The position numbers were made by a program, and so were the translations under genes. The notes under the pieces were generated by a model, which saw only the letters and a list, made by a program, of their open reading frames with translations, made no database searches and had not been told where the DNA came from. Of a stretch of 64,000 nucleotides of DNA, positions 14,845-48,859 are shown one piece after another. Position 1 is the first letter of the stretch, and every line of letters begins with the position of its first letter. Source of the stretch: Oscillospiraceae bacterium (GTDB lineage: Bacteria > Bacillota > Clostridia > Oscillospirales > Acutalibacteraceae); the NCBI GenBank assembly GCA_003526845.1, contig DPVM01000008.1, positions 47,593 to 111,592 of the forward strand, given 5' to 3'.

Positions 14845-14920
14845 TTATAATAAATATTTCAGATGAGCATAAGGGATTCCTTGTGCTCATTTGTTATTTT
14901 AAATGCTTTTTGGTGGTATT

Positions 14921-15736
14921 ATGAGCAACGACAATAACAAAAAAGTGAATAATTCCGACGGCAAATCAAAAAATACGGCGAAAAAAGTATTGACAGTTAT
15001 TGCCGTGTTAATGATTATTGCGGGGGTTTGCTGCTTTGGATATTATATCTATATGCAGAAAAGCGCCGACAGCGAAGATAATAAAGCACAAAGCTACACG
15101 CAAAGCACAACGGCGGCGCAGACCGACGGCGACAAAGTTAAAAATCCGATTGATTTTAAATCGCTTCAAAGCAAAAACAGCGATATTTATGCTTGGATAA
15201 AAGTTGACGGCACAAAGGTTGACCATCCGGTGTGTCAAAGCCCGACAGACGATTATTTTTATCTCCGCCACAGTGCTTATGACAAATCGTATGTTTCAAG
15301 CGGCGCGATTTATACTGAACTTTCAAACACAACAACTTTTAAAGACAGGGTGACTGTTATTTACGGCCACAACAACTACGGCGACTCAATGTTTACCACC
15401 CTGCATAAATTTGAGAGCAAGGATTTTTTTGATTCTCACCCGTATTTTTATATTTACACGCCGACCTCACGGCTGAAATATCAAATCGTTTCGGCGTTTA
15501 AGTATGACGACCGTCATATTATGAACAGCTTTAATTTTCAGAACAACGGCACATTTGAGGAATTTATCAAAATGATAAAAAATCCGCAGTCAACAAACAA
15601 AAATGTGCGCTCAAAACTTGACAAAGACATTACAATTGATGATAATATAGTAGTTCTGTCAACATGTGTGACAAACCAAAAAAGCAACAGATATTTAGTA
15701 TGCGGAGTATTAGTAGACGATGAAAAGACCTATTGA
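14921..15736 (+). CDS. srtB: Class B sortase (SrtB).
   Basis: There is a TM anchor. The catalytic His lies in VIYGHNNY, the Cys in VVLSTCV and the Arg in RYLVCG. The IYAWIKVDGTKVDHPV block is typical of SrtB. An alternative start exists at 14903. Confidence 0.8.
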   Translation: MSNDNNKKVNNSDGKSKNTAKKVLTVIAVLMIIAGVCCFGYYIYMQKSADSEDNKAQSYTQSTTAAQTDGDKVKNPIDFKSLQSKNSDIYAWIKVDGTKVDHPVCQSPTDDYFYLRHSAYDKSYVSSGAIYTELSNTTTFKDRVTVIYGHNNYGDSMFTTLHKFESKDFFDSHPYFYIYTPTSRLKYQIVSAFKYDDRHIMNSFNFQNNGTFEEFIKMIKNPQSTNKNVRSKLDKDITIDDNIVVLSTCVTNQKSNRYLVCGVLVDDEKTY

Positions 15737-20098: not shown

Positions 20099-20133
20099 TA
20101 AACGGCTTTGCTTATTTGCAGAGCCGTTTTTCT
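20099..20133 (+). terminator. Rho-independent terminator.
   Basis: The stem is aaacggctttgc / gcagagccgttt followed by TTTT. Confidence 0.6.
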
Positions 20134-20335
20134 TTATTGCTTTACCGCACCAAAACACAAATATCATCAAATTGTTATATTTTTAACAATAAAAATCCTC
20201 AAATTTGTTGAAATATCCGAAAATGATATAACATCGTTATTTTTTTAACAAAAACTCTTGAATACTTAAATCTATAATTTTATAATAAAGGACAGTTAAA
20301 ACTCTAATTATATATTTTTTCGGAGGTAATGAATA

Positions 20336-21712
20336 ATGGAATATCGTATTGAACATGATTCGATGGGCGAGGTTAAGGTTCCTGCCGACAAATATTGGGC
20401 AGCTCAAACCGAGCGCAGCCATGAAAATTTCAAAATCGGAGTAGGCATCGAAACAATGCCTCGTGAGATTACTCACGCATTCGGCGTTTTGAAAAAGGCT
20501 GCCGCAATTGCAAACCACAAATTGAAATCGGAAAAAATGACCGACGAAAAGCTTGCGGCAATTTCGCAGGCGTGCGATGAGGTTATGAGCGGTGCGCTCA
20601 ACGAGCATTTTCCGCTTGTTGTTTGGCAGACAGGCTCGGGCACACAGTCAAATATGAATGCCAATGAGGTTATCGCCAACAGAGGTAACGAGATTGCAGG
20701 CAAAAAGCTTCTTCATCCAAACGATGATATTAATATGAGCCAGTCGTCAAACGATACTTTCCCGACAGCAATGAGTATTGCGGCTGTTTTGGGCATCGAG
20801 GATAAGGTTTTCCCGGCTCTCGACAAGCTTGTCGCAACACTTAAAAGACTTGAGTCTGAAAATGACGATGTTGTTAAAAGCGGCAGAACTCATCTTCAGG
20901 ATGCAACGCCGATTAAGTTTTCACAGGAAATAAGCGGCTGGAGAGCGTCGCTTGAAAAGGACAGACGACTTCTTGAAATCGCTCTTCCCGAGCTTAAGGA
21001 GCTTGCACTCGGCGGCACAGCCGTAGGTACGGGACTTAACGCTCCGGCAGGCTTTGATGTTGAGGTTGCAAAGGCAGTCAGCGAAATTACAGGCAAGCAG
21101 TTCATCACTGCGCCTAACAAGTTCCACGCTCTCACCTCAAAGGATGAGATTGTATTTGCTCACGGCGCACTCAAGGCTCTTGCAGCTGACCTTATGAAGA
21201 TGGCTAACGATGTTCGTTGGCTTGCATCCGGTCCGAGAGACGGACTCGGCGAAATTAAAATTCCCGAAAACGAGCCGGGCTCGTCAATTATGCCGGGTAA
21301 GGTTAATCCGACACAGTGTGAGGCTGTTACAATGGTTGCCGTTCAGGTTATGGGCAACGATGCGGCTGTCGGCTTTGCGGCTTCTCAAGGCAATTTCGAG
21401 CTTAATGTATTTATGCCGGTCATCATTTACAATTTCACTCAGTCGGTAAGGCTTTTGAGCGAGGTTATGGTATCATTCAACGACAACTGTGCAGTAGGCA
21501 TTAAGGCTGACAGAGAAAAGATGAACCACAATCTTCACAATTCGCTTATGCTTGTTACGGCGCTCAATCCTTATATCGGATATGAAAATGCTGCAAAAAC
21601 AGCTAAAAAGGCATATAAAGACAATATTTCATTAAAGCAAGCCTGCGTTGAGCTTGGATTCTTGAGCGAGGAAAGGTTTGACGAGGTATTCCATCCCGAG
21701 CAGATGGTTTAA
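20336..21712 (+). CDS. fumC: Class II fumarate hydratase (fumarase C).
   Basis: The fumarate lyase signature GSSIMPGKVNPTQCEA is present. The N-terminus MEYRIEHDSMGEVKVPADKYWAAQTERS is typical of FumC. The protein is 458 aa. Confidence 0.9.
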   Translation: MEYRIEHDSMGEVKVPADKYWAAQTERSHENFKIGVGIETMPREITHAFGVLKKAAAIANHKLKSEKMTDEKLAAISQACDEVMSGALNEHFPLVVWQTGSGTQSNMNANEVIANRGNEIAGKKLLHPNDDINMSQSSNDTFPTAMSIAAVLGIEDKVFPALDKLVATLKRLESENDDVVKSGRTHLQDATPIKFSQEISGWRASLEKDRRLLEIALPELKELALGGTAVGTGLNAPAGFDVEVAKAVSEITGKQFITAPNKFHALTSKDEIVFAHGALKALAADLMKMANDVRWLASGPRDGLGEIKIPENEPGSSIMPGKVNPTQCEAVTMVAVQVMGNDAAVGFAASQGNFELNVFMPVIIYNFTQSVRLLSEVMVSFNDNCAVGIKADREKMNHNLHNSLMLVTALNPYIGYENAAKTAKKAYKDNISLKQACVELGFLSEERFDEVFHPEQMV

Positions 21713-21761
21713 TATTAAATTCAGGGATAAAAGGGATAAATAGGAATAGGAGAATAGCGGT

Positions 21762-22544
21762 ATGACTTATAGTTATTATCCGGGCTGCACATTGAAAACA
21801 AAGGCAAAGGACTTGGATAAATATGCAAGGCTTTCTGCAGAGGCTCTCGGTGTAACGCTTGAGGAACTGCCCGATTGGCAGTGTTGCGGCGGCGTTTATC
21901 CGTTGGCAAAGGATGAAATCGCAACCAAGCTGTCATCTGTCAGAGCCTTGAACACGGCAAAGGAGCTTAATCAAGACCTTGTTACAATGTGCTCGGCGTG
22001 CCACAATGTTATTAAGCAGGTTAACAATGATATGAAAACCGATGAGGATATTGCATCAAGGGTCAACAATTATCTTAAACTTGACGCACCATACAACGGC
22101 GAAACAAATGTTATTCATTATCTTGAACTTCTGCGAGATGTTGTGGGATTTGACGAAATCAAAAAGAAAGTTGCAAATCCGCTTAAGGGCAAAAAGATAG
22201 CCGCATACTACGGTTGTCTGCTTTTGAGACCGAGCAGGGTTATGCAAATGGACGATCCGGAAAATCCGACAATTATGGAGGATTTCATCAAGGCGCTCGG
22301 CGCAACACCGGTTTTGTATTCAATGCGTAACGAATGCTGCGGCGGCTATACAACAATCGAAAACAAAAGTATTGCAACGGCGAAGGGAAACGCTGTGCTT
22401 GAAAACGCAGTTAACAACGGCGCAGAAATGGTTATCACAGCCTGCCCTCTTTGCATGTATAATTTGAATAAAAACGCAACCGATTACGACATTCCGGTTA
22501 AGTACTTCACAGAGGTGCTTGCCGAGGCTCTCGGTGTTAAATAA
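21762..22544 (+). CDS. hdrB: HdrB-like protein with two CCG domains (heterodisulfide reductase subunit B / SdhE / TfrB C-terminus type).
   Basis: Two copies of the C-x(n)-CCG-x(n)-C-x2-C motif are present: PGCTL...WQCCGG...CSAC and YGCLL...ECCGG...CPLC. Confidence 0.8.
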   Translation: MTYSYYPGCTLKTKAKDLDKYARLSAEALGVTLEELPDWQCCGGVYPLAKDEIATKLSSVRALNTAKELNQDLVTMCSACHNVIKQVNNDMKTDEDIASRVNNYLKLDAPYNGETNVIHYLELLRDVVGFDEIKKKVANPLKGKKIAAYYGCLLLRPSRVMQMDDPENPTIMEDFIKALGATPVLYSMRNECCGGYTTIENKSIATAKGNAVLENAVNNGAEMVITACPLCMYNLNKNATDYDIPVKYFTEVLAEALGVK

Positions 22545-22554
22545 GGAGGACTCT

Positions 22555-22944
22555 ATGATTAATAATAATGAATTAAAAGAGCAAATCCTTCAAATTTCCG
22601 GAGTGAATGCTCGCAAATGTATGCGATGCGGAAAATGCACGGCAACATGTCCCTCGTTTGACAATATGGAATATCATCCGCATCAGTTTGTTTACATGGT
22701 TGAAAGCGGAAATATCGAGCCTTTGCTCAATTCAAAATCGCTTTACACCTGCCTTTCGTGCTTTGCCTGCGTTGAAAGATGCCCCCGCGGCGTCGAGCCG
22801 GCAAAAATCGTCGAGGCAACAAGGCTTGCAGTTATCCGCGAGCAGGGTGCAAACCACCTTAAACCGCAGGATATACCCGAAATTCTTGATGACGATTTGC
22901 CGCAGCAGGCTATCGTCAGTGCGTTTAGAAAATATACAAAGTAA
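22555..22944 (+). CDS. hdrC: HdrC-like 2x[4Fe-4S] ferredoxin subunit.
   Basis: The cluster-binding motifs are CMRCGKCTATCP and CLSCFACVERCP. I chose the ATG at 22555, which follows the RBS aaggagg. Confidence 0.75.
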   Translation: MINNNELKEQILQISGVNARKCMRCGKCTATCPSFDNMEYHPHQFVYMVESGNIEPLLNSKSLYTCLSCFACVERCPRGVEPAKIVEATRLAVIREQGANHLKPQDIPEILDDDLPQQAIVSAFRKYTK

Positions 22945-22959
22945 GGAGGAAAACGGCGA

Positions 22960-24954
22960 ATGCAAAGAATTGGCGTATTTGTATGTTGGTGCGGTAGCAA
23001 CATTGCAGGTACCGTGGATGTTCACAAGGTTGCCGAAACCCTGAAAAACGAAGCGGGCGTTGTTTTCTCCACCGATTATCAGTACATGTGTTCACAGGCA
23101 GGTCAGGACCTTGTCAAAAACACAATCAAAGAATATAACCTTACGGGCGTCGTAATCTGCTCGTGTTCTCCGCGTATGCACGAAAACACATTCAGAAAAG
23201 CGGCGGCATCCGTTGGACTTAACCCTTATATGGTCGAGATTGCAAACATTCGTGAGCAATGCTCGTGGATACATAAGGATATGGCGACTGCTACGGAAAA
23301 GGCAATAATCCTCGGCAGAGCCGCAATTGCAAAGGTGCATCTCAATGCACCGCTTACGGCAGGCGAAAGCCCCGTTACAAAAAGAGCCCTTGTTATCGGC
23401 GGCGGTATTGCCGGTATCCAAACTGCGCTTGATATTGCCGAGGCAGGATTTGAGGTTGATATTGTTGAAAAATCACCTACAATCGGCGGCAAAATGGCTC
23501 AAATTGATAAAACATTCCCGACTCTTGACTGTGCGGCTTGTATTTTGACACCTAAAATGGTTGAGGCGGCACAGCAGGAGAATATTAAAATTTATTCATA
23601 CAGCGAGGTTGAAGAGGTCAAGGGCTTCGTAGGCAACTTCACTGTTAAAATCAAGAAAAAAGCAAGATATGTAAACGAGGATATTTGCACCGGTTGCGGT
23701 CTTTGCACGGAAAAGTGCCCGATGAAGCGCGTACCTAATGAATTTAATCTCGGCATGGATAACCGCCATGCGATTTACATTCCGTTTGCTCAGGCTGTTC
23801 CGAAGGTTGCAACAATCGACCCGACAGCCTGCATAAAACTTAAAACGGGCAAGTGCGGCCTTTGTTCAACAGTCTGCGAGGCTAAGGCTATCAATTATGA
23901 TGCTAATGACGAGTTCGTTGAGGCGAAATACGGCGCAATCGTTGTTGCAACCGGATTCAATCCGATTTCCGTTGAAAAATTTGACGAATTTGCGTATTCT
24001 CAAAGCCCCGATGTCGTTACCTCGCTTGAATACGAAAGACTTATGAACGCGGCAGGACCGACAAGCGGCACTCTTTTAAGACCGTCAGACCATAAGCATC
24101 CGAAAACAATCGTTTTTGTGCAGTGCGTAGGTTCCCGTTGTGACGGTGTTGACAGCAAGGGTAAACCGTATTGCTCAAAGGTTTGCTGTATGTATACCGC
24201 AAAACACGCAATGCTTACCCGTGAAAAATACCCCGACACGGATGTTTATGTATTTTATATTGATGTTCGTACCCCCGGCAAAAACTTTGACGAGTTTTAT
24301 CGCAGAGCTGTCGAGGAATACGGCGTTCACTATATCAAGGGTATGGTCGGCAAGGTAGTTCCCGAAAACGGAAAACTTAAAGTTCAAGCCTCCGACCTTC
24401 TTGCAAATGAGCAGCTTCATATCGACGCCGACATGGTGGTTCTTGCCGCCGCTGTCGAGCCTGATAAAAGCGCAAGACACCTTGCAACAATGCTCACCGC
24501 ATCTATGGATACAAATGATTTCTTCACAGAGGCTCACCCAAAACTTCGTCCTGTCGAATCACCGACAGCAGGCGTGTTCCTTTCGGGTATGTGCCAAGGT
24601 CCGAAAGATATTCCCGAAACCGTTTCGCAGGCATCTGCCGCGGCGGCAAAGGTTATTGGACTTCTTGTTAAGGATAAACTCACCTGCAACCCGTGCGTTG
24701 CACACAGCGACGAAATGCTTTGCAACGGCTGCTCAAGCTGTGAAAAGGTTTGCCCTTACGGCGCAATTACCTATGAAGAAAAAGAGTTCAGAATGCCCGA
24801 CAGAACTACGGCAATTCGCCGTGTCGCAAGCGTTAACCCTGCTGTTTGTCAGGGTTGCGGCGCATGTACGGTTGCCTGCCCGAGCGGCGCTATGGATTTG
24901 AACGGCTTTTCTAACAGACAAATTATGGCGGAGGTAGATGCGATATGCAGATAG
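22960..24954 (+). CDS. hdrA: HdrA-like FAD-containing iron-sulfur flavoprotein, the bifurcating-type heterodisulfide reductase subunit A.
   Basis: The FAD Rossmann fold reads ALVIGGGIAGIQTALDIAEAGFEVDIVEKSPTIGGKM. There are several 4Fe-4S motifs (CTGCGLCTEKCP, CGLCSTVCE, CNGCSSCEKVCP, CQGCGACTVACP). An N-terminal Cys cluster is present. The protein is 664 aa. Confidence 0.85.
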   Translation: MQRIGVFVCWCGSNIAGTVDVHKVAETLKNEAGVVFSTDYQYMCSQAGQDLVKNTIKEYNLTGVVICSCSPRMHENTFRKAAASVGLNPYMVEIANIREQCSWIHKDMATATEKAIILGRAAIAKVHLNAPLTAGESPVTKRALVIGGGIAGIQTALDIAEAGFEVDIVEKSPTIGGKMAQIDKTFPTLDCAACILTPKMVEAAQQENIKIYSYSEVEEVKGFVGNFTVKIKKKARYVNEDICTGCGLCTEKCPMKRVPNEFNLGMDNRHAIYIPFAQAVPKVATIDPTACIKLKTGKCGLCSTVCEAKAINYDANDEFVEAKYGAIVVATGFNPISVEKFDEFAYSQSPDVVTSLEYERLMNAAGPTSGTLLRPSDHKHPKTIVFVQCVGSRCDGVDSKGKPYCSKVCCMYTAKHAMLTREKYPDTDVYVFYIDVRTPGKNFDEFYRRAVEEYGVHYIKGMVGKVVPENGKLKVQASDLLANEQLHIDADMVVLAAAVEPDKSARHLATMLTASMDTNDFFTEAHPKLRPVESPTAGVFLSGMCQGPKDIPETVSQASAAAAKVIGLLVKDKLTCNPCVAHSDEMLCNGCSSCEKVCPYGAITYEEKEFRMPDRTTAIRRVASVNPAVCQGCGACTVACPSGAMDLNGFSNRQIMAEVDAICR

Positions 24955-25391
24955 AAGAAAACAAAGAATTCAGACCTAAAATCGTTGCCTTCTGCTGTAA
25001 CTGGTGCTCATACGCAGGCGCAGACCTTGCAGGCACAAACCGTCTTAACTATCCTGCCGATATTAAGATTATCCGTGTTCCGTGCTCCTGCCGTGTAAAC
25101 CCGATGTTTATACTCAGAGCATTTCAGCGCGGTGCAGACGGCGTTATTATGTGCGGTTGCCATCCCGGCGACTGCCACTATACAACAGGAAATTATTATG
25201 CAAGACGAAGAATGACTCTCCTTTTCTCAATGCTTGATTATCTCGGCATAGAGAAGGGCAGAACAAGAGTAGAATGGGTTTCTGCCGCAGAGGGTCAAAA
25301 GTTCGCCGAAACAATGAACAGCTTTGTTGAAACAATAATTGCCCTCGGTGAAAACAAAAGATTGGAGGATTTGAGATGCAAGACAAAATGA
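24945..25391 (+). CDS. mvhD: MvhD/FlxD-like subunit, the methyl-viologen-reducing hydrogenase delta-subunit family.
   Basis: The motif IVAFCCNWCSYAGADLAG ... VPCSCRV ... IMCGCHPGDCHY is present. The protein is 148 aa and overlaps the hdrA stop. Confidence 0.8.
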   Translation: MQIEENKEFRPKIVAFCCNWCSYAGADLAGTNRLNYPADIKIIRVPCSCRVNPMFILRAFQRGADGVIMCGCHPGDCHYTTGNYYARRRMTLLFSMLDYLGIEKGRTRVEWVSAAEGQKFAETMNSFVETIIALGENKRLEDLRCKTK

Positions 25392-26356
25392 TTTCTCGTG
25401 CGAAAGAACTCCTCCTCGACGGCACCGTAAACAGAGTTCTCGGCTGGAAAACGGGCGAGTTTGAATATGATATTACTCCGGCAGTGTTCACCACCGCACA
25501 GGAGCTTGAAAACGATTTTGTTTACAACAGCTTTGCGGCTGCAAACCTTTCGAAATATCTTGTAAAGGAAAGCAGAAAGGAAGGCAAAATTCTCGTATTT
25601 CTCAAGCCTTGCGATTCATACAGCTTTCAGGAGCTTATGAAAGAGCACAGAGTTATAAGAGAAAATGTTTACATCATCGGCATTGCATGCTACGGCAAGA
25701 CAGATATTGAAAAAATCAAAGAAAAGGGAATAAGCGGCATTTCAAGCGTCGGCGAGGACGATACAAATATCGTTGTCGATACGATTTATGACGGCACCGT
25801 CAAATTCCCGAAATATGAGGTTATGGCAGAGCGTTGCCTCTCCTGCAAGAGCAAAAAGGTTGTTGTTTATGACGAGCTTATCGGCGAAAACGGCGAGGTT
25901 AACGAGGATTGCAACCGCTTTGACTTGGTTGCAAAGCTCGAGGCAATGACTCCCGACGAGCGTTTCGCTTTTTGGCAAAACGAACTTTCAAAATGCATCC
26001 GTTGCAACGCATGCAGAAATGTTTGCCCTGCCTGCACATGTGAAAAATGTGTGTTTGACAACGACAATTCGGGTGTTGCGCAAAAGGCGGCAGCTAACAG
26101 TTTTGAGGAAAATATGTTCCATATTATCCGCGCATTCCATGTTGCCGGCAGATGCACAGACTGCGGCGAATGCTCACGCGTGTGCCCACAGCATATTCCG
26201 CTTCACCTGCTCAACCGCAAATTCATCAAGGATGCAAACGAGCTTTACGGTGAATATCAGGCAGGCGCAGATATGGAAACAAAGCCGCCTCTTGTTAACT
26301 TTACATATGACGATTGCGAGCCAAGCGTTGTTTATGAAAGAGGAGGTGCCGAATAA
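25376..26356 (+). CDS. Iron-sulfur subunit with an FrhB-like N-terminus and a C-terminal 2x[4Fe-4S] domain (FlxC-like).
   Basis: The cluster motifs are CIRCNACRNVCPACTC and CTDCGECSRVCP. It overlaps both upstream and downstream genes. Confidence 0.55.
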   Translation: MQDKMISRAKELLLDGTVNRVLGWKTGEFEYDITPAVFTTAQELENDFVYNSFAAANLSKYLVKESRKEGKILVFLKPCDSYSFQELMKEHRVIRENVYIIGIACYGKTDIEKIKEKGISGISSVGEDDTNIVVDTIYDGTVKFPKYEVMAERCLSCKSKKVVVYDELIGENGEVNEDCNRFDLVAKLEAMTPDERFAFWQNELSKCIRCNACRNVCPACTCEKCVFDNDNSGVAQKAAANSFEENMFHIIRAFHVAGRCTDCGECSRVCPQHIPLHLLNRKFIKDANELYGEYQAGADMETKPPLVNFTYDDCEPSVVYERGGAE

Positions 26357-27375
26357 TGTATAAAATCGCATTTGGTAAAATTTCGGCGCTCTTTAACGCA
26401 ATTTCATCGGTTGAAAAACTTTATGTTCCGACCGATAAGGACGATATTGCGGTTTTTGCCGAATATAAGGACGGCGTTGAGCTTACTCAAAAGCTTAACA
26501 CTAACCGCTCGGCTAAAGATTTTTTCTTCCCACAGACAGAAAATCTTTACGATGTAAAAATGAAAGACAAAAAAATCGAGATTACAGATACAAGAGAAGA
26601 GTGTGAGGATTTCGTTATCTTCGGCGTAAGAGCGTGCGATGTCCGTTCGTTCTCGATTCTTGACAAGGTGTATCTTGCAGACCCGATTGATTCCTATTAT
26701 AAAAACAGACGCGACCACGGCACGATTATTTCGCTTGCCTGCGGCAGACCCGAGGAAACCTGTTTTTGCCAAAGTTTCGGCATAAATGCGGCAGACCCCG
26801 AGGGCGATGTCAAGGCTTGGAAAATCGGCGACGAACTTTATTTGCAAGGCGCAACAGACAAAGGCAATGCATTGCTCGAAAAGGTTTCCTCGGTTCTTGA
26901 ATCGGCAGACGAAAAAGCTGTTGACGATGCAAAAAGCGCTATTAACGCAGTTATGAAAAAGCTTCCGCTTGCAAAGGTAAGTTTTGAGCATATGAAGGAC
27001 AACGATTTGCTTGACTATTTCAACAGCGACAAGTGGTCCGGCCTTTCTGAGGCTTGCCTCGGTTGCGGCACATGCACTTTCGTTTGCCCGACTTGTCAGT
27101 GCTACGATATTCGCGAGTTTGATACCGGAAACGGTATTAAAAAATTCAGATGCTGGGACAGCTGTATGTATTCCGACTTCACGAAGATGGCTCACGGCAA
27201 TCCGCGTACAACTCAACTTCAGCGCTTCAGACAAAGATTTATGCACAAGCTTGTGTATTTCCCCGATAACAATAACGGCGAATTCGGTTGCGTCGGCTGC
27301 GGCAGATGCCTTGCAAAATGCCCGATTTCAATGAATATTGTTAAGGTGGCAAAGGCATTGGAGGTGAATGTGTGA
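26356..27375 (+). CDS. AsrA / sulfhydrogenase-beta / FlxB-like iron-sulfur subunit.
   Basis: The cluster motifs are CLGCGTCTFVCPTCQC and CVGCGRCLAKCP. Its 339-aa length matches AsrA/HydB-type proteins. Confidence 0.55.
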   Translation: MYKIAFGKISALFNAISSVEKLYVPTDKDDIAVFAEYKDGVELTQKLNTNRSAKDFFFPQTENLYDVKMKDKKIEITDTREECEDFVIFGVRACDVRSFSILDKVYLADPIDSYYKNRRDHGTIISLACGRPEETCFCQSFGINAADPEGDVKAWKIGDELYLQGATDKGNALLEKVSSVLESADEKAVDDAKSAINAVMKKLPLAKVSFEHMKDNDLLDYFNSDKWSGLSEACLGCGTCTFVCPTCQCYDIREFDTGNGIKKFRCWDSCMYSDFTKMAHGNPRTTQLQRFRQRFMHKLVYFPDNNNGEFGCVGCGRCLAKCPISMNIVKVAKALEVNV

Positions 27376-28202
27376 TGAATAACGAAACATTAATTCCGGT
27401 AATCGGCGAGGTTACCGATATAAGAGTTGACACACCCGATGTCAAGACCTTCAGAGTCACTGCGTTGGGCGGCGGAAAAGCGTTTGAGCATATCCCCGGT
27501 CAGTGTGCAATGCTCTCAATCCCGGGTGCAGGCGAAGCAATGTTTTCAATCACTTCCTCACCAACTACAAAGGATTATATGGAATTCAGCATCAAAAAGT
27601 GCGGTTGCCTCACAACCTGGCTCCACGAAATGGAGGTAGGTCAGCAAATCACTATCAGAGGTCCGTACGGCAACGGTTTCCCGGTTGATACCGAGTTTGT
27701 CGGCAAGGATTTGCTTTTCATTGCCGGCGGTATCGGTCTTGCTCCGCTCCATTCCGTAATCAATTACTGCCGTGCCAACAGAGAAAAATACGGCAAGATT
27801 GATATTGTTTACGGCTCACGCTCGGCAGATGATCTTGTTGATTATCAGGAGATTATCGACGAATGGTGCAAAGAGGACGGCATCAATGTTTATCTCACCA
27901 TCGACAGAGAGCAGGAGGGTTGGGACGGTCATGTCGGTTTTGTTCCCAACTATGTTAAGGAACTCGGCTTTGATACAAACAAAACGGCTGTAATCTGCGG
28001 TCCGCCTATTATGATTAAGTTTACACTTACGGGTCTTGTTGAACTTGGATTTGACAAAACCCAGGTTTACACCACAATGGAGCTTAAAATGAAATGCGGT
28101 GTCGGCAAATGCGGCAGATGCAACATCGGCGATAAATACGTTTGTAAAGACGGTCCTGTTTTCCGCTGTGACCAGCTTGACGAAATGCCGACCGAGTATT
28201 AA
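27372..28202 (+). CDS. FAD/NAD(P)H-binding oxidoreductase with a C-terminal [2Fe-2S] (AsrB / HydG / PyrK / FlxA-like). It is the likely NADH entry point.
   Basis: The NAD-binding glycine motif reads DLLFIAGGIGLAPL, with an FNR-like fold. The C-terminal cluster motif is CGVGKCGRCNIGDKYVCKDGPVF. The protein is 276 aa. Confidence 0.7.
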   Translation: MMNNETLIPVIGEVTDIRVDTPDVKTFRVTALGGGKAFEHIPGQCAMLSIPGAGEAMFSITSSPTTKDYMEFSIKKCGCLTTWLHEMEVGQQITIRGPYGNGFPVDTEFVGKDLLFIAGGIGLAPLHSVINYCRANREKYGKIDIVYGSRSADDLVDYQEIIDEWCKEDGINVYLTIDREQEGWDGHVGFVPNYVKELGFDTNKTAVICGPPIMIKFTLTGLVELGFDKTQVYTTMELKMKCGVGKCGRCNIGDKYVCKDGPVFRCDQLDEMPTEY

Positions 28203-28217
28203 TAGGAGGATGCGTAG

Positions 28218-28895
28218 ATGGAAAAAGAAATGGTAAATATCTATTTGTTCGGCAAAAAATACGAAGTGCCATCAAATCTTACAATAATGAACGCTATGGA
28301 ATACGCAGGCTATCAGCTTAAAAGAGGTTGCGGATGCAGAAACGGCTTCTGCGGCGCCTGCGCAACAATTTACAGGGTTAAGGGCGACAGAGAGCTTAAA
28401 GCTTGCCTTGCATGCCAAACAAAGGTTGAAAACGATATGTATATCGCAACTCTTCCGTTCTTCCCGCTTATCAAGCAACCGTATGATATTGAAAAAGTTA
28501 AGCCGACAGAGCAGATTATGATGCAGCTTTATCCCGAGATTTATGCATGCGTCGGCTGTAATGCCTGCACAAATGCGTGCACACAGGGTCTTAATGTTAT
28601 GCAATATATTGCATATGCTCAAAGAGGCGAATACGAAAAGTGTGCCGAGGAGAGTTTTGACTGCGTAATGTGCGGCGTTTGTTCGTCGCGTTGCCCGGCA
28701 GGAATCAGTCATCCGCAGGTTGCATTGCTTGCAAGACGACTCAACGGCAAATATCTTGCTCCCGAAAGCAAGCATTTGACAGAAAGAGTTCAGGAAATCA
28801 AGGACGGCACATTTGAGGAACTTATTCAAAACCTTATGCAAAAGCCGCTTGACGAGATTAAAGAGCTTTATAACAACAGAGAGATTGAGAAGTAA
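28218..28895 (+). CDS. Succinate dehydrogenase / fumarate reductase iron-sulfur subunit-like protein (FrdB/SdhB-like, 2Fe-2S plus two [4Fe-4S]/[3Fe-4S] sites).
   Basis: The 2Fe-2S motif is CGCRNGFCGACA...C. The C-terminal cluster motifs are CVGCNACTNAC and CVMCGVCSSRCP. The RBS is aggagg. Confidence 0.7.
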   Translation: MEKEMVNIYLFGKKYEVPSNLTIMNAMEYAGYQLKRGCGCRNGFCGACATIYRVKGDRELKACLACQTKVENDMYIATLPFFPLIKQPYDIEKVKPTEQIMMQLYPEIYACVGCNACTNACTQGLNVMQYIAYAQRGEYEKCAEESFDCVMCGVCSSRCPAGISHPQVALLARRLNGKYLAPESKHLTERVQEIKDGTFEELIQNLMQKPLDEIKELYNNREIEK

Positions 28896-28907
28896 GGAGG
28901 TGCCGAT

Positions 28908-30521
28908 ATGTATAATAAAGAAATGCTTGATTCAATGAAAAAAGTTGCCGAGGCAAGAGAGCGAAACACATATTTCGAGCCGCGCAGAATGACAGCGGAC
29001 GAAAAGGATACTCTTCTCGCAACTTTCCACCCCGATTACAAGGAGGATCAGTTCAGCGTCCTTAAAATCGGTGCCAATGCCGGCGAAAAAGTGCCATGCG
29101 AGCTTGCCGAGCTTTTGCAGGCTCATTCAAGAATTAAACCCGACAGCGTGGACCTTTCAAATCCCGATTACGATGTTGATGTGCTTATTATCGGCGGCGG
29201 CGGTGCAGGTGCATCTGCGGCTATCGAGGCTGATAACAACGGCGCAAAAACCATGATTGTAACAAAGCTTCGTATGGGCGACGCAAACACAATGATGGCA
29301 GAGGGCGGTATTCAGGCTGCCGACAAGCCAAACGATTCGCCTGCAATCCACTATATCGACGCTTTCGGCGGCGGTCACTTTGCCGCAAAGCCGGAGCTGC
29401 TTTACAAGCTCGTTACCGAGGCTCCCGAGGCTATTCAGTGGCTCAACAATTTGGGCGTTGAATTTGACAAGGCACCCGACGGCACAATGATTACAACTCA
29501 CGGCGGCGGAACATCAAGAAAAAGAATGCACGCCGCAAAGGACTATTCGGGTGCAGAGATTATGCGTACTCTTCGCGACGAGGTTCAAAACAGACAAATT
29601 CCGATTGTTGATTTTACAGCCGCAATTGAGATTATTAAGGACAGCGAAGGCAAGGCAGCAGGCGCAGTTCTTATGAATATGGAAACAAGCGAGCTTCTTG
29701 TTGCAAAGGCTAAAACAGTCATTATCGCGACAGGCGGCGCAGGCAGACTCCATTATCAGGGTTTCCCGACATCAAACCACTACGGTGCAACTGCCGACGG
29801 TCTTATTTTAGGTTACAGAGCCGGTGCAAAACTCCTTTATGCCGACACTCTTCAGTATCACCCGACAGGTGCGGCTTATCCGGAGCAGATTTTCGGTGCT
29901 CTTGTTACGGAGAAAGTTCGTTCGCTCGGCGCAAAGCTTGTCAATGTAAACGGCGAAGTATTTATGCATCCGCTTGAAACCCGTGATGTTTCTGCCGCAT
30001 CCATTATTCGTGAATGTACGGCAAGAGGCAACGGCGTTCATACGGACGACGGAGTCGGCGTTTGGCTCGACACCCCGATGATTGAGATTAAGGGCGGCGA
30101 GGGCACGATTGAAAAGAGAATTCCTGCCATGATGAGAATGTTCGGCAAATACGGCATTGATATTCGCAAGGAGCCTATTCTCGTTTATCCAACACTTCAC
30201 TATCAAAACGGCGGTCTTAACATTTCGGCAGACGGTATGACAAATATCGAAAACCTTTATGTTGCAGGCGAGGCAGTCGGCGGCATCCACGGCAGAAACA
30301 GACTTATGGGCAACTCGTTGCTTGATATTATTGTTTTCGGCAGAAATGCAGGAAAAACCGCATCCGCAAAATCAAAAGAGGTTGAGCTCGGCGAGCTTAC
30401 TCTTAAGCATGTTGATGATTTTGAGGAGCAAATCAAATCTGCCGGAATCGAAACGGATGTTGTTTCTCCGAAACTTCTTCCGCGCTATACTCACGGCAAC
30501 CCTCGTTTTGAGGTAAAATAA
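28908..30521 (+). CDS. Fumarate reductase / succinate dehydrogenase flavoprotein-like subunit (FrdA/SdhA/NadB family).
   Basis: The FAD Rossmann fold reads DVDVLIIGGGGAGASAAIEA. Substrate and active-site blocks RKRMHAAKDYSGAEI and LQYHPTG are present. The C-terminus has GNSLLD. The protein is 537 aa. Confidence 0.8.
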   Translation: MYNKEMLDSMKKVAEARERNTYFEPRRMTADEKDTLLATFHPDYKEDQFSVLKIGANAGEKVPCELAELLQAHSRIKPDSVDLSNPDYDVDVLIIGGGGAGASAAIEADNNGAKTMIVTKLRMGDANTMMAEGGIQAADKPNDSPAIHYIDAFGGGHFAAKPELLYKLVTEAPEAIQWLNNLGVEFDKAPDGTMITTHGGGTSRKRMHAAKDYSGAEIMRTLRDEVQNRQIPIVDFTAAIEIIKDSEGKAAGAVLMNMETSELLVAKAKTVIIATGGAGRLHYQGFPTSNHYGATADGLILGYRAGAKLLYADTLQYHPTGAAYPEQIFGALVTEKVRSLGAKLVNVNGEVFMHPLETRDVSAASIIRECTARGNGVHTDDGVGVWLDTPMIEIKGGEGTIEKRIPAMMRMFGKYGIDIRKEPILVYPTLHYQNGGLNISADGMTNIENLYVAGEAVGGIHGRNRLMGNSLLDIIVFGRNAGKTASAKSKEVELGELTLKHVDDFEEQIKSAGIETDVVSPKLLPRYTHGNPRFEVK

Positions 30522-30594
30522 AAGTTAATCATTTACCCACGGGCAAAACGGCAAGAGCTGTTTTGCCCGATTTCATCAAAGAATAGAGGATTTT

Positions 30595-31809
30595 ATGGAA
30601 CTGTTTAACGGAATACTCAGTATTCACGCAGTTAGTTTTTTAACCCTCAGTGTATTTGCAATTGCGGCATTGGGCTACATTTTGGGACGAATTACTGTCA
30701 AGGGCGTTGATTTGGGCACGGCAGGCGTGTTTGTAATTGCCCTTCTTTACGGCTGTTTTTGCTACAGCAATTTGACGCACGAGCTTACAATGACGGATGA
30801 AACCTTCGTCAAGGAGGCATTAAAAAATGTCGATAACATAGGGCTTGTGCTGTTCGTTACTTCGGTCGGCTTTATTGCAGGACCGACCTTTTTCAAAAAT
30901 TTGAAAAAGAATTTTAAATCGTATGTTTGCCTCGGACTTATAATTATTTTGTCCGCAAGTATTGTTTGCGTCATTTGTATTATGCTCGGTAAGGGCGATA
31001 CAGTCCACGAACATGAGGAGTTTAAAGCAATCCTTGTCGGTCTGCTGTCGGGCGCGCTCACGAGTACACCGGCATTCTCCGCGGCAAAGGATGCCGTAGG
31101 ACCGCAGTATGAGGATTTTGTTTCCGTAGGCTACGGCATTGCATATTTGTTCGGCGTTATAGGTGTTGTTCTTTTTGTTCAGCTTGTTCCCAAATTTGCA
31201 AAAGCAAATATGGAAGAAGAGGTCAAAAAAATTACCGCCGACAGCGACGGCGGCAGTAAAAGAATTTATAACGGCAAGCTTATCGAATTTGATTCGTTCG
31301 GCATAATGCCGTTTGCGCTTGCAGCGGTCCTTGGCATGATTATCGGTTCAATCAGCTACAAGGGCTTTTCGCTCACGACAACGGGCGGCTGTATTCTCGT
31401 TTCGCTTGTTATGGGTCATTTCGGCAGAATAGGAAAAATCAGCATAATGCCGAAGGGGAGCACACTTCGTGTGTTCCGTGAGCTTGGGCTTATGTTTTTC
31501 CTTATCGGTGCCGGAATCTCGGGCGGCGCAAAATTCGTTGAGGTTTTCAACGCAAAATATCTTTTCTACGGCGTGTTGATGACACTCATTCCAATGATTA
31601 TCGGCTTTCTGTTTGCAAAATATGTTCTCAAATTGCCGCTCCTTAACAATCTCGGCTCGATTACCGGCGGTATGACCTCAACACCTGCGCTCGGCACACT
31701 CATTCAGGTTTCGGGCACGGAGGATATTGCAACGGCATACGCCGCAACATATCCCATCGCGCTCATATCCGTAGTAATAGCCGCAAAGCTTATAGTTATG
31801 TTTTGTTAA
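30595..31809 (+). CDS. AAE-family (AspT/YidE/YbjL/SucE-type) transporter without RCK domains.
   Basis: There are two Asp-Al_Ex repeats. The N-terminus reads GYILGRITVKGVDLGTAGVFVIALLYG. The hallmark GGMTSTPALG is in the second repeat. The protein has about 10 TM segments. Confidence 0.75.
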   Translation: MELFNGILSIHAVSFLTLSVFAIAALGYILGRITVKGVDLGTAGVFVIALLYGCFCYSNLTHELTMTDETFVKEALKNVDNIGLVLFVTSVGFIAGPTFFKNLKKNFKSYVCLGLIIILSASIVCVICIMLGKGDTVHEHEEFKAILVGLLSGALTSTPAFSAAKDAVGPQYEDFVSVGYGIAYLFGVIGVVLFVQLVPKFAKANMEEEVKKITADSDGGSKRIYNGKLIEFDSFGIMPFALAAVLGMIIGSISYKGFSLTTTGGCILVSLVMGHFGRIGKISIMPKGSTLRVFRELGLMFFLIGAGISGGAKFVEVFNAKYLFYGVLMTLIPMIIGFLFAKYVLKLPLLNNLGSITGGMTSTPALGTLIQVSGTEDIATAYAATYPIALISVVIAAKLIVMFC

Positions 31810-31840
31810 ATTTTGTTTATAAACGATTTGGGGGAACGAG

Positions 31841-32558
31841 CTTGAACAACTTATTTATACAAGGAGTACTGTTTGAATGGAATGAAATAGAGCCAAACAG
31901 CTACATCAGGACTATTGAGTCCTTGCGTGATGTAGAAAAAATCGAATTTCAAAGCCCCGTTTCGCTGTTTGTAGGCGAAAACGGAACGGGAAAATCGACA
32001 TTGCTTGAGGCAATTGCCGTTGCACACGGTTTTAATCCCGAGGGCGGCACAAAAAACTATGTTTTTTCAACTTATGATTCTCATTCCGAATTATGCGATG
32101 CAATACGAATTGCAAAGGGCTACAGAAAAGAAAAATGGGGATATTTTTTGAGAGCGGAAAGTTTTTATAATGTTGCCACCCAAGAAGAAAAATATGCCGA
32201 CATTGCGCACCCGTCAATGCAATATCACAAAAAGTCACACGGAGAAAGTTTTTTGGATTTGGCACAAGACAATATTAAGTCAAACGGCTTGTATTTGCTC
32301 GACGAGCCGGAGGCAGCCCTTTCTCCGCAAAGGCAGTTGACATTGCTGACGCAGATATACAAATGCGCAAATGATGGCGCGCAATTCATTATAGCTACAC
32401 ATTCTCCGATTTTGTTGGGTATTCCCAATGCTCAAATATTTTGCTTTGACAACAGCAAAATACATACATGCACCTACGAGGAAACCGACAGCTATAAGAT
32501 TACCGAAATGTTTATAAACAATCGCAAAAGCTTCCTCCAAAAACTCTTGGATGAATAA
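31841..32558 (+). CDS. Standalone AAA_21 / ABC-like ATPase (COG3910-type predicted ATPase).
   Basis: Walker A (GENGTGKSTLLEAIA), Walker B (LYLLDEPEAALSPQRQ) and an H-loop (ATHSP) are present. I called a TTG start at 31841 after a GGGGGA RBS. The ORF track begins at a TTG at 31803. Confidence 0.55.
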
Positions 32559-32582: not shown

Positions 32583-32616
32583 CATAACCACCGGTTCAAC
32601 CGGTGGTTATGATTGT
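32583..32616. terminator. Bidirectional rho-independent terminator.
   Basis: The near-perfect palindrome is cataaccaccggtt c aaccggtggttatg, flanked by A/T runs. Confidence 0.7.
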
Positions 32617-40469: not shown

Positions 40470-43400
40470 TTAAGCAAGTGATTGAAGAAGATCAACCAAT
40501 TTCTTAATAACTGTGTCTGAATCGCCCTTAACCATTCCAAGTACCTGGCTGATGGTGTCTGATATACCGCTGTCTGCGCCGCCGATAAGTCCGCCGATGA
40601 GCTTAACGATTATATCGTAGTTGCCCTTGTAGTTGATTGTGTCAATCAAGTATCTGAGAACAGCGATAAGTGTTTCGTCTTGATCGGACTTAACATAAAT
40701 TCTGCTGCCGTGTGTTGCAGCCTGTGAAGCAGCGTTGAGAACAACTTTGCCGTGGCTTGCAAGTTCGAGCCAATCAATCTCAGGAAGCTCAAGACCGAGA
40801 GGTGAGCCTTTAATCTTGATGATTGGGAGAATCTTGTTGATAAGACCTACAACATTGTCTGCACCGATGAGCGGTTTGAGTGTGCCCTTAAGGTCATAAA
40901 TGTTAAGCTTAATGCCTAAGTTCAAGCCTGCCTTTGCAGTGAGCTTGTTGAGGTCAAAATTAAGTGCTTTAAGAAGAGCATTTACATCAACAACCGACTT
41001 AAGTGAATCAAGGAGAGATGATACTGCGGTGAGGAGATTGTCGATAACCTGGAGCAAACCGTCATTTGCAAAGAAGAGAGCAAGGTTTGGAAGAATGTCA
41101 GCAAGAGTTTCAACCGGAGCAAGGAGAATATCCTCTACCTTATCCATAAGAGGATTAAGGATGTCAAGAAGGATATTGTCATACTCGTTGAAGATATCTT
41201 CTCTGTACTGATATTGTGTTTTAACATTGTAGCAACCGAATGCCTCAAGGAGAGGAACGATTACTGATGAGTAGCCGTCTGAGCCCGGAACGCTTATAAG
41301 ATTGAATAAGCCGAGCGACTTGCTGTTGAGAAGAACATCAAGCACGCCGTAAATCGGACGAAGAACTGCTGTGAGTGCATGCAAGAAGCTTTGTCTGTCG
41401 GTTACGCCCCAAACGAGTGAGTTCTTGTTAACCTTTGACCAAGAACCTGCGTTCTTGATTACGCTTGCTGCTGCAGCATATGTCTTGCCGTACTTTTCAT
41501 TAGTAAGGAGTGACGCAACATTTGATGTTGAGAAGTCAATTCCTGTTTGAGCAAGTAAGGATGTGAGTGATGTTGAGTCGTTAATCTTAACGCCCTCAAC
41601 TGCTTTATAAAGACCTACAGCAAGTGAACTGATAATGTCATCTTTATAAACCATATCGGTTACAAGACCGAGGAGACCGCCCTTGTCTGTGAGAAGGCCT
41701 GTTACGAGACCGTCAAGCATCGGAGCAAGTGTGCGGCAGAAGTCCTCATCAAGGTCGCCGAATGTAAAGCTGCTGTCCTTATACTTGAAGTTTGTGTAGT
41801 CGAAGAATACATTGTTTGCCTGACCGTTCAAGAGATAGAATACTGTGTGAACGAGGTCATCCTGACCTGCAATACCAAGCTGGTTGAATACAACTGTCAA
41901 AATGCTTGATACTGTCTTGTTGGCGCTGAGCTTAATATGCTTCTTCTTGTCTGTTTCAATGTTAAGGATAATCTTCTTGATAGCGTTGTGATTCTTATTG
42001 AGTACCTTTGAAAGGTATCTAAGAACTGTGATAAGAACCTTGCCTTGGTCAGCCTTAACTTGCTTTGTTGTGTATTTGCCGTTTGCATTCTTGGCTGCAC
42101 TTGATTTAGTGCTGATTGTGCCGAGACTTGCAATCTTAGCAAAGCTGATGCTCGGGATTTTAATTCCGGTTTTCTTGATAAGTGAATTTACAAGAGGAAC
42201 AATGATGTCCTGAATGTTGCACTTTTCAAGGTGTGTAAGCTCAAGATGGAAGTCAACCTTGAGGTCGAGGAGGTTGGTTACTAACTCGCCGAGGTCGCCG
42301 CCTGTGAGTTGCTTGATAATCTTGTCAACATTGATGCCGTGCTTGCTGAGAATTCCGAGGATTCCGTTCTTGGCAGTAATCGGAGCAAGGAGATTACCTA
42401 CAACCTGAGCGATACCGTTGCTTTCGATGAAGTAAGCAACATTAGGAAGTACCTTTGAGATTGTGTCAAACGGAGCGTCTACTGCGTCGCCAACAAATGA
42501 AACGATTGGGTTAAAGATGTTGATGAGAAGGTTATCTTTTGCCTTCTTGTAATCTTTCTTGTACTGTGAGTATGTTTTAACATTGTCGCACATAAATGCT
42601 TCAAGTACAGGAATGATTGCGCTTTCGTATCCGTTTGTGCCGAAGTTAAGTGTTGAGTTCTTGTCAATCATTGACTGAATTTGGTTGATAACCGAATTGA
42701 GGTCAAACTTAACTACATTTGTAACATTTTTGTGATTTGAGCCGGTCTTTACATTGCTTCTTACATCAAGTTCAACAACGCCGTTCTTGATAATGTAAGT
42801 AAGCTTGCAGCCGTATTCGCTGTCCTTTGCAATGTTTGTAGAGCCTTTAACATTAATTGCTTTAAGGACTCCCTTAAGGTCGGTATTCTTGAGAGAAAGA
42901 GTACCCTCTGCAAGGAAAATTGAAAGTACATCGTTAAGAGGACGAAGTACAGCGGCAAGGCCGTTTACAAATCCTTCTTTAGCCTTTGATGAGCCGTTTG
43001 AGAAGCCCCAGTTGAGTGACTTAACCTTTTTCCAGCTCTTTGTCTTCTTAAGAGTTGCAGCTGCGGTTGAATATGTTCTGCCGTAGCTCTTGTCTGTAAG
43101 ATAATGAGCGATACCCTTTGTTGAAACATCAATTCCGATTGCGTCAAAAACATTTGCAACTGTGTCGTTACCGTCAAGCGCACCGTAAAGTGTTGTTGCA
43201 AGTTTTGTAAGGTTTTCGTTAGTGTAAAGGTTATCGTTTACAAGTGCGCCCAATCCCTTAATGTCGGTTACGCCGAGGCTGTTAAGGAGCGGGAATACAT
43301 TTTCAACAAGGCTGTCAAGCTGCTTAACAGCGTCGTTAGCGTCGCTTGATGTGATGCCTGTCGGATATGTAAATGATTTGCTGAACTTTGATGCATACTC

Positions 43401-48059: not shown

Positions 48060-48859
48060 AATCATCTCTCCTTTTTTCTAATGATTAACACTATTTGCAG
48101 CAAATTATTAAAACATAATAGCCGTTTTCGTGCCTAATTGCACAAGGAGAAGAACGCCCAATCTTTTGATTTTTGAGCGCAAAGTTCCCTTGTGAACGAA
48201 CAATTCATTTATATTTATACCAAATAAATATTTAAAAGTCAATAGAATTTTAAATATTTTTTAATAATTTATTAATTCAATATTATTTATGAATAAATAC
48301 AGTTATATTCATTATTATAATATTAATAACATATTATGTCATCTGATATTCTTTGCTTGGTTGCAGATACGGAGAAATTTTGAACTGCTACTTAAAAAAG
48401 ATATAAACATTTTGCAAAAAATTATTGAAAAAGCTGTTTGCAACGACTGACTAATAACACACTTCTACATGTTGTTTTTATCAAATGATAATCGCAGCCG
48501 AAACACAACATACGGACACTGTAAAGGCAATGAGTTGACCGAATTGAACAGCTGTAAAGTCTAACAGCATTACATTTTACTCATTTCAAAATGTGTAAAA
48601 TAAATCCGCAAACAAAATGTAAAATAATTATTAACAAATTGTAAATTTTAATCAGCGGATAATCAACATTCGGCTGCTAATTTGACGGAAAAATGCGAAA
48701 TTTGCAACCTTTGGGCAAATTTGACTATACATTCGCCCATTTTGTGAACAAATTATGTAAAAAAATAATTGACTTTTGACGGTTTGATATGTTTTAATAT
48801 ATATGCGTGATATGCGCTATTGTGTTCAACTGTTTGTGAACACACTTGTTCCTCAGTCT

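Follow-up and report, generated by a model that had tools for sequence, protein, structure and literature searches.

Soluble enzymes that link the reduction of fumarate to that of ferredoxin may be widespread among gut Clostridia. The case considered here is an array of eleven genes on the + strand (positions 20336–31809) of a 64,000-nucleotide stretch, called the window below, of contig DPVM01000008.1 from an Oscillospiraceae bacterium. The favored reading, with a probability of about 60%, is that nine of the gene products form a soluble FlxABCD-HdrABC-FrdAB complex coupling the oxidation of reduced nicotinamide adenine dinucleotide (NADH) to the reduction of fumarate and ferredoxin, with the HdrB-like protein as the junction to the iron-sulfur (Fe-S) subunit FrdB. 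A preliminary description of this DNA had pointed to a CCG-domain protein at 21762–22544 leading the hdr genes and to an SdhB-like protein at 28218–28895 beside a flavoprotein; both positions, and the open reading frames in general, are confirmed exactly. The arrangement and the hypothesis have already been published, so that the locus is a further instance of a known, still hypothetical kind. The present contribution lies in how widely the linkage holds, in the permutations of gene order and in an argument from the single CCG protein against a thiol shuttle, the ideas themselves not being new.

The eleven genes are separated by intergenic gaps of 10–73 bp or overlap by 1–16 bp, and their spacing suggests one operon. 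This is also suggested by the limits of the array, a terminator at 20100–20129 on one side and convergent terminators near 32600 on the other; a terminator scan of 20336–31809 found no + strand terminator between the genes. Domain searches identify all seven subunit types of FlxABCD-HdrABC, encoded together, alongside the Frd pair, a fumarase and a transporter:

20336–21712, + strand: class II fumarate hydratase, FumC (TIGR00979, 708.6 bits against a cut-off of 664.75).
21762–22544, + strand: HdrB-like protein of 260 amino acids with two CCG domains (Pfam CCG in two stretches, E-value 2e-19).
22555–22944, + strand: HdrC-like protein of 129 amino acids with two predicted [4Fe-4S] clusters (Fer4_8 and Fer4_17; TIGR03290, E-value 2.9e-17); a GGAGG motif lies 5 nt before the ATG at 22555.
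22960–24954, + strand: HdrA, a flavoprotein with flavin adenine dinucleotide (FAD) and Fe-S clusters (5odc_A, E-value 4.5e-208 over residues 3–662; HdrA2 model, E-value 1.9e-240).
24945–25391, + strand: MvhD/FlxD, the [2Fe-2S] connector to HdrA (Pfam FlpD, E-value 3e-55).
25376–26356, + strand: FlxC-like Fe-S protein (4Fe-4S dicluster domains at residues 203–274), whose position is kept in all related loci.
26356–27375, + strand: FlxB-like Fe-S protein related to AsrA and to sulfhydrogenase beta subunits (Fer4_22, E-value 2.8e-30; ShyB model, E-value 2.1e-55).
27372–28202, + strand: FlxA, a flavoprotein binding NAD(P)H and a [2Fe-2S] cluster (NAD_binding_1, FAD_binding_6, DHODB_Fe-S_bind), which resembles AsrB and hydrogenase gamma subunits.
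28218–28895, + strand: Fe-S subunit of 225 amino acids resembling FrdB and the N-terminal part of TfrB, with one [2Fe-2S] and two [4Fe-4S] clusters predicted, no CCG domain and a helical C-terminal tail.
28908–30521, + strand: FrdA/TfrA-like flavoprotein (FAD_binding_2, PF00890, E-value 8.6e-68; TfrA is the best NCBIfam match).
30595–31809, + strand: transporter of the Asp-Al_Ex family (AspT/YidE/YbjL; Pfam Asp-Al_Ex, E-value 2.5e-61), a candidate C4-dicarboxylate or succinate carrier.

In the proposed scheme, the operon would constitute a soluble malate-to-succinate branch, in which FumC would make fumarate from malate and the transporter would move a dicarboxylate. FlxA would oxidize NAD(P)H, and its electrons would reach the FAD of HdrA by way of FlxB, FlxC and FlxD (MvhD). 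There the pair would be divided in the manner of archaeal Hdr complexes, with ferredoxin receiving one electron uphill. The other would run downhill through the clusters of HdrC to two non-cubane clusters of HdrB, and from there along the [4Fe-4S], [4Fe-4S], [2Fe-2S] chain of FrdB to the non-covalently bound FAD of FrdA and finally to fumarate, with no free thiol or disulfide intermediate. The CCG protein would thus bridge both modules, acting as HdrB of the Hdr module and taking the place of the CCG domains that are fused into TfrB, a subunit of the archaeal thiol:fumarate reductase. What is observed is the gene content, the cofactor motifs, the catalytic residues, the operon structure and the persistence of the gene set in different lineages and gene orders. 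From these we infer that a complex forms, that NADH is the donor and ferredoxin the second acceptor, that the electrons are bifurcated and that HdrB touches FrdB.

Conservation of the gene set was followed with the flavoprotein, scanned against one genome per species; at least 580 matched stretches encode a FrdA relative. The related loci discussed here are the best 80 of these, with FrdA 79–88% identical to that of the window. They belong, for example, to Eubacterium coprostanoligenes ATCC 51222 (locus L007) and Guopingia tenuis, and to many metagenome-assembled Oscillospiraceae, Christensenellales and Eubacteriales from human, rumen, caecal and bird gut. Solibaculum mannosilyticum and [Clostridium] leptum are further named carriers of the operon. 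The nine-gene hdr/flx/frd unit is complete and in the order of the window in each of the 57 loci that reach 7.15 kb or more upstream of frdA. The window has the order hdrB-hdrC-hdrA; hdrB and hdrA are found together in every related locus examined, and hdrC accompanies them except on the short contig L089. Upstream of hdrB, fumC is present in 47 of the 53 complete units with upstream room, and in three others (L024, L025 and L029, positions ~180–1700) a two-subunit class I fumarase replaces FumC, to which it is not homologous. A homologue of the transporter follows frdA by no more than 2.5 kb in 48 of the 68 related loci whose sequence continues far enough. The conserved feature is therefore the nine-gene set with a fumarase of either class.

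The set also persists in other gene orders, where HdrB identity is only 42–48%. Loci L084 and L085 read fumAB (class I)-frdB-frdA-hdrB-hdrC-hdrA-mvhD-flxCBA, while L086 reads hdrC-hdrB-hdrA-mvhD-flxCBA-frdB-frdA-sucCD. Loci L082 and L087/88 carry a class I fumarase (which is thus found in the distant loci L082, L084 and L087), malic enzyme and hdrCBA; L087 also has a frdB-like gene farther on. Malic enzyme, succinyl-CoA synthetase or dicarboxylate transporters are encoded near the distant loci. The 5.9-kb contig of the CCG homologue P0162 shows only hdrB-hdrA, and those of P0135, P0145, P0148 and P0259 are shorter than 3 kb. The preliminary description had pointed out that the CCG gene and frdB lie apart; this is just one of several orders, hdrB directly following frdA in L084/L085.

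Two further features of the distant loci were noticed. A small DUF3870 protein is encoded upstream of the class I fumarase in L082 (3014–3490), L084 (2877–3224) and L087 (6323–6652), a gene that neither the window nor its 80 close relatives contain. In L087 (12809–20840) and also in L088, there is a second hdrC-hdrB pair, followed by a 1480-residue HdrA/GltD-type fusion, MvhD and a FrhB-like protein; in L087 this second hdr set sits between the fumarase/hdrCBA genes and the frdB-like gene, and an MTHFR/MetV-type module lies on the same contig.

Co-occurrence in 57 of 57 loci and retention of the set through permuted orders place the hdr/flx/frd linkage far beyond chance and link the CCG protein phyletically to the FrdAB pair. 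Together with the tight or overlapping spacing, these facts also bear on the view that a generic Flx-Hdr system and a separate FrdAB pair are merely adjacent by chance. Flx-Hdr clusters without Frd do exist, and P0193, an HdrB homologue 38% identical to the CCG protein of the window, belongs to an Hdr cluster of the MTHFR/MetV type; synteny nevertheless effectively refutes the idea of two independent systems, whose chance of being right is minimal.

The array encodes a single CCG-domain protein according to Pfam and NCBIfam scans. Both of its C-X31-39-CC-X34-CXXC motifs are complete (C9, C41, C42, C77 and C80; C152, C192, C193, C228 and C231), and these ten cluster-binding cysteines are invariant across 55 bacterial homologues, so that two non-cubane [4Fe-4S] clusters are predicted. 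Residues 2–259 align with residues 2–270 of the solved HdrB 8rvv_B (E-value 7.6e-37), and 7bkb_B and 5odc_B also match. The protein is 24–42 residues shorter than the solved HdrB chains (284–302 residues), in which ~15–30 residues extend beyond the end of the alignment. Outside its ten cysteines, HdrB evolves two to three times faster than FrdA, FrdB or HdrA: across 48 related loci, mean pairwise distances are 0.40–0.54 for HdrB, HdrC, FlxC and FlxB, and 0.14–0.23 for FrdA, FrdB, HdrA, MvhD, FlxA and FumC. Fixed cysteines in a fast-changing protein appear to be more in keeping with a relay or adaptor than with a pocket for a specific substrate.

The affiliation of this protein was examined with family models and a tree, with NCBIfam model scores, two HdrB sequences from the PDB and one SdhE-like representative taking the place of named TfrB and SdhE sequences. 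It scores 152.4 bits with the HdrB model (cut-off 345.15), 143 with SdhE, the model for the anchor of methylmenaquinol:fumarate reductase, and 39 with the C-terminal half of TfrB, staying under the curated cut-off in all three; the near-tie of HdrB and SdhE recurs in ten diverse CCG homologues. In a neighbor-joining tree of the window protein, 74 full-length representatives of 50%-identity clusters and the two PDB sequences, a bacterial branch with the window protein is split at 93% bootstrap from the archaeal HdrBs, the SdhE-like P0259 and P0193, the bootstrap inside the bacterial branch being just 8–59%. The CCG protein thus neither clusters firmly with canonical HdrB nor lacks a tie to FrdAB, and going by these comparisons it should not be filed as canonical HdrB.

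The arrangement had been described as a split version of archaeal TfrB, suggestive of modular recombination of Sdh and Hdr parts. The separation itself stands: the FrdB-like protein is devoid of a CCG domain, and the CCG protein of a 2Fe-2S or ferredoxin domain, unlike the fused TfrB. The domain set stands as well, since FrdB-like (19–92), HdrC (112–219) and the CCG protein (265–487) match successive segments of the TfrB model, so that FrdB and the CCG protein reproduce the domains of TfrB. The ancestry does not: the tree places the CCG protein among bacterial HdrB-like sequences, its match to TfrB is weak and gives no special affinity to that family, and there is no sign of a split or recombination event, the best scores being those with the HdrB and SdhE models. 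Separate CCG and SdhB-type subunits are in fact normal in type E succinate:quinone reductases and in methylmenaquinol:fumarate reductase.

The Fe-S subunit of the Frd pair has an N-terminal 2Fe-2S motif of the SdhB/TfrB type (C40-x4-C45-x2-C48...C66), and its invariant cysteines are 38, 40, 48, 66, 111, 114, 117, 121, 149, 152, 155 and 159. Two CxxCxxCxxxC motifs lead to the prediction of two [4Fe-4S] clusters, a dicluster pattern shared with TfrB and type E SdhB, unlike the [4Fe-4S] and [3Fe-4S] motifs of classical SdhB. Similarity to named families is limited: the TfrB model matches with E-value 4.8e-11 and 42 bits (cut-off 385), dhsB at positions 16–94 with E-value 1.6e-7 and 31 bits (cut-off 88). 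The best PDB match of the dicluster region is RnfC, and hhalign of the FrdB alignment with Escherichia coli SdhB gives a probability of 13%, aligning only the 2Fe-2S motif and one 4Fe-4S motif. For these reasons, the term SdhB-like looks solid for the N-terminal domain alone, and by the same sequence comparisons the protein should not be filed as TfrB or as classical SdhB. Joint Genome Institute annotators call its homologues ‘succinate dehydrogenase/fumarate reductase-like Fe-S protein’.

The flavoprotein is predicted to be the fumarate-reducing catalytic subunit. It aligns with SdhA/FrdA over residues 88–487 and conserves the complete set of catalytic residues, H318, T334, E335, R338, H431 and R465 aligning with H242, T254, E255, R286, H354 and R399 of E. 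coli SdhA. Asn127 replaces the histidine that binds FAD covalently. In complex II enzymes, loss of this histidine fits fumarate reduction rather than succinate oxidation, and Asn127 thus suggests the direction of a fumarate reductase and not of a succinate dehydrogenase. There is no SdhA-type C-terminal helical domain; the alignment stops near residue 500 and a short tail follows. Some databases call homologues ‘L-aspartate oxidase’ or ‘FAD-dependent oxidoreductase’, NadB models score ~270 bits and the adjoining transporter is of the aspartate:alanine exchanger family, all of which could mean that the pair acts on another substrate, as an L-aspartate oxidase or a reductase of some other enoate, the fumarase being an incidental neighbor. 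This is very improbable: TfrA is the best family match (343 bits, E-value 2.5e-102, against a cut-off of 718), a dedicated Fe-S partner is present while NadB has none, and a fumarase of either class is a conserved neighbor. Fumarate is favored as the substrate by this neighborhood, to which malic enzyme, succinyl-CoA synthetase and transporters are added in distant loci, and by the retained catalytic residues.

Both subunits carry conserved parts outside the known folds, an N-terminal extension of FrdA (residues 1–88, window 28908–29170) that is kept even in a 59%-identical relative, and a helical tail of about 60 residues in FrdB (residues ~165–225). The N-terminal 91 and C-terminal 60 residues of FrdA and the tail of FrdB have no match in the PDB (phmmer) or in Pfam. 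The FrdA extension and the FrdB tail are candidate docking elements for the Hdr/Flx core.

Bifurcation is the next element of the favored reading. The HdrA of the window can be aligned from end to end with 5odc_A, a bifurcating HdrA from a solved complex, and appears to be of the bifurcating type. Textbook potentials are about -320 mV for NADH, +30 mV for fumarate/succinate and -420 to -500 mV for ferredoxin, and because of these values bifurcation would be thermodynamically allowed. The transfer from NADH to fumarate is strongly exergonic and does not require coupling, and no ferredoxin or Rnf genes occur in the 64-kb window; the Hdr and Flx subunits might then simply conduct electrons from NAD(P)H or reduced ferredoxin to FrdAB, storing no energy in ferredoxin. 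We consider this quite unlikely. Nothing of the archaeal bifurcating architecture is missing from HdrA, and seven extra redox subunits would be costly, given that single-chain NADH:fumarate reductases exist. In addition, according to earlier work that PMC7282089 cites, succinate formation by Pseudoclostridium thermosuccinogenes was nearly abolished by added H2, which that paper reads as fitting ferredoxin-coupled fumarate reduction.

An alternative path between the Hdr and Frd modules is a thiol shuttle. In the thiol scheme of methanogens, Hdr reduces the heterodisulfide and the CCG domains of TfrB itself re-oxidize the thiols. By analogy, Flx-Hdr could reduce some disulfide, of low molecular weight or on a protein, at HdrB, as has been proposed for DsrC in Desulfovibrio, and the resulting thiols could reduce fumarate through FrdAB, in the way of CoM-SH and CoB-SH with archaeal TfrAB, in which case the CCG protein would serve Hdr only. 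Such a shuttle would fit the retention of all ten cysteines of the disulfide-reducing site and the match of FrdA to TfrA, a thiol:fumarate reductase. However, a shuttle of the methanogen type needs two CCG sites and the operon has one: FrdB has no CCG domains, thought to oxidize thiols in TfrB, and neither a second CCG protein nor a candidate thiol carrier or disulfide substrate is encoded. The fast evolution of HdrB outside its cysteines is unexpected for a specific substrate pocket, and nine genes retained as a unit in four gene orders fit a physical complex better than a diffusible intermediate. Direct transfer between Fe-S clusters is favored for these reasons, and also because the fused TfrB and the type E SdhABE, whose CCG module directly contacts the SdhB-type module, are precedents for such a contact. 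The shuttle, although one of two options discussed by Rubin-Blum et al., is thus unlikely.

To the question in the preliminary description of whether the CCG protein serves the Frd module, the Hdr module or both, a bridging role would be a reasonable answer under the favored reading. A stronger proposal is more tentative, at somewhat less than even odds: HdrB would be no disulfide reductase but an obligatory relay that plugs FrdAB onto a bifurcating HdrA core, yielding an NADH:ferredoxin and fumarate enzyme independent of thiols and quinones.

Several observations weigh against the complex with an HdrB–FrdB junction. The docking site of FrdB might lie on HdrC, HdrA or a Flx subunit rather than on HdrB. 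Mirror-tree partial correlations over 48 complete loci recover a known contact, HdrA–MvhD (0.52), and give 0.26 for both HdrB–FrdA and HdrB–HdrC, yet 0.38 for FumC–FrdA, a pair expected not to touch. No FrdB-HdrB fusion was found among six over-long CCG homologues and three with odd alignments; these nine proteins carry CCG domains alone or unrelated chimeric parts. No protein of the hdr/flx/frd unit reaches the curated cut-off of the named NCBIfam family that it matches best. The donor may be NADH or NADPH, and ferredoxin is the presumed low-potential acceptor. AlphaFold2 models of the Frd pair are too poor for inspection of surfaces: that of FrdB, from a shallow alignment (81–89% identical sequences and one at 54%), has a mean predicted local distance difference test score (pLDDT) of 61 and a predicted template modeling (TM) score of 0.37, and that of FrdA a mean pLDDT of 48. 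With the FrdB model, Foldseek reached TM scores of only ~0.25 in the PDB, against NuoG/HydA-type 2Fe-2S N-terminal domains and one SdhB. Finally, no biochemical characterization of any member was found in the literature, and a survey of April 2026 still calls the idea a suggestion.

The closest known system is the ‘succinate operon’ of P. thermosuccinogenes (Koendjbiharie et al. 2020), with a fumarate hydratase gene, seven Flx-Hdr genes, two fumarate reductase genes and a putative succinate transporter gene (PMC7282089). It is transcribed, with a roughly four-fold increase under CO2 limitation that is not significant for all subunits, and NADH-dependent fumarate reduction coupled to ferredoxin reduction was proposed for it. 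Composition, order and proposed function are those of the window, as matched through the published description rather than by sequence; P. thermosuccinogenes is a thermophile, whereas the window belongs to a mesophilic gut lineage near Eubacterium coprostanoligenes. In tubeworm symbionts (Ca. Endoriftia) and Thioflavicoccus mobilis, tfrAB is interleaved with flxABCD-hdrABC (Rubin-Blum et al. 2019, PMC6315080), and both a thiol shuttle and a direct bifurcating complex were proposed there and in Supplemental Note 3. That cluster lies inside a carbon-fixation cluster of the reductive tricarboxylic acid cycle with korABCD (2-oxoglutarate:ferredoxin oxidoreductase), whereas the window has a fermentative context, with fumarase and transporter and no kor genes.

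More distant systems share single modules. With the archaeal TfrAB and MvhAGD-HdrABC of Methanothermobacter, the window shares homologous HdrA, HdrB, HdrC and MvhD, a FrdA whose best match is TfrA, and a FrdB whose N-terminus matches that of TfrB and which, like TfrB and unlike classical SdhB, is predicted to hold one [2Fe-2S] and two [4Fe-4S] clusters. Differences concern the CCG domains (TfrB has its own, fused, and works with the coenzymes CoM-SH and CoB-SH, whereas the sole CCG protein of the window is HdrB), the flavoprotein (compared with TfrA, FrdA lacks the C-terminal domain and has the N-terminal extension) and the donor module (Flx with NAD(P)H, instead of a hydrogenase). FlxABCD-HdrABC of Desulfovibrio vulgaris, as reported for Ramos et al. 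2015 by papers that cite it, has the same seven subunit types and domain compositions, in a gene order that is reversed in the window (hdrBCA-flxDCBA). Its proposed acceptor is the DsrC disulfide and it is reportedly linked to an alcohol dehydrogenase, whereas the window links FrdAB and encodes no DsrC nearby. In SdhABE/MfrABE, a separately encoded two-CCG protein works with SdhAB-type subunits, which is comparable to the window. SdhE, however, attaches the enzyme to membrane and quinone chemistry, while the CCG gene of the window is accompanied by hdrC and hdrA, without genes for any membrane or quinone component, and its product lies across the 93% split from the one SdhE-like sequence of the tree.

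If the favored reading is true, these strict anaerobes would save energy while reducing fumarate and would need neither quinones nor a reductase in the membrane, since some of the drop between NADH and fumarate would be kept as reduced ferredoxin. The CCG/HdrB module would then also prove able to act as an adaptor of general use, joining bifurcating cores to terminal reductases. Since the operon is common in Clostridia of gut, rumen and caecum, it bears on who makes gut succinate and at what energetic yield. Under the stronger proposal, with HdrB as an obligatory relay, the enzyme would form a new class of flavin-based electron-bifurcating enzymes, and many quinone-less gut Clostridia would gain an energy-conserving route to succinate via ferredoxin and Rnf.

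Three features lie upstream of fumC:

20100–20129, + strand: terminator-like hairpin with a 12-bp stem (6 GC pairs) followed by a T tract, which ends the upstream DUF3877 gene and forms the 5′ boundary of the unit.
20172–20189 (exact) and 20234–20251 (one mismatch), no strand: two palindromes TTGTTA-N6-TAACAA just upstream of the fumC promoter.
20258–20286, + strand: sigma-70-like promoter TTGAAT-17-TATAAT, a consensus match only (10 of 12 positions), ~50 bp before the fumC start.

The palindrome has no other match in the 64-kb window. Its exact form recurs ~100 bp 5′ of fumC in the closest relatives, L002–L008, where it is 27-fold enriched relative to the remainder of each locus, and is absent upstream of fumC from loci more distant than these. 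The palindromes at 20172–20251 are putative operators, which we take to resemble those of clostridial Rex, the repressor that senses NADH/NAD+.

The neighbors of the array, the upstream DUF3877 gene and a downstream ATPase gene, were considered as parts of the system and rejected, neither being conserved in related loci. The ATPase gene (31803–32558) is of the AAA_15/AAA_21 type (AbiEii-like) and shares 7 bp with the end of the transporter gene. Among the related loci, L028 (CAKXAF010000020.1) is labeled ‘uncultured thaumarchaeote’ and bears the clostridial operon, with a FrdA 84% identical to that of the window; it is probably a mis-binned contig in its assembly. Elsewhere in the window, two giant open reading frames of 2531 (40470–48065, - strand) and 2170 amino acids (48952–55464, + strand) have no Pfam match at an E-value of 1e-5. 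Proteins with SdrD_B and InlB B-repeat domains are encoded nearby, a sortase gene lies at 14903–15736, and the two giant products are probably cell-surface proteins.

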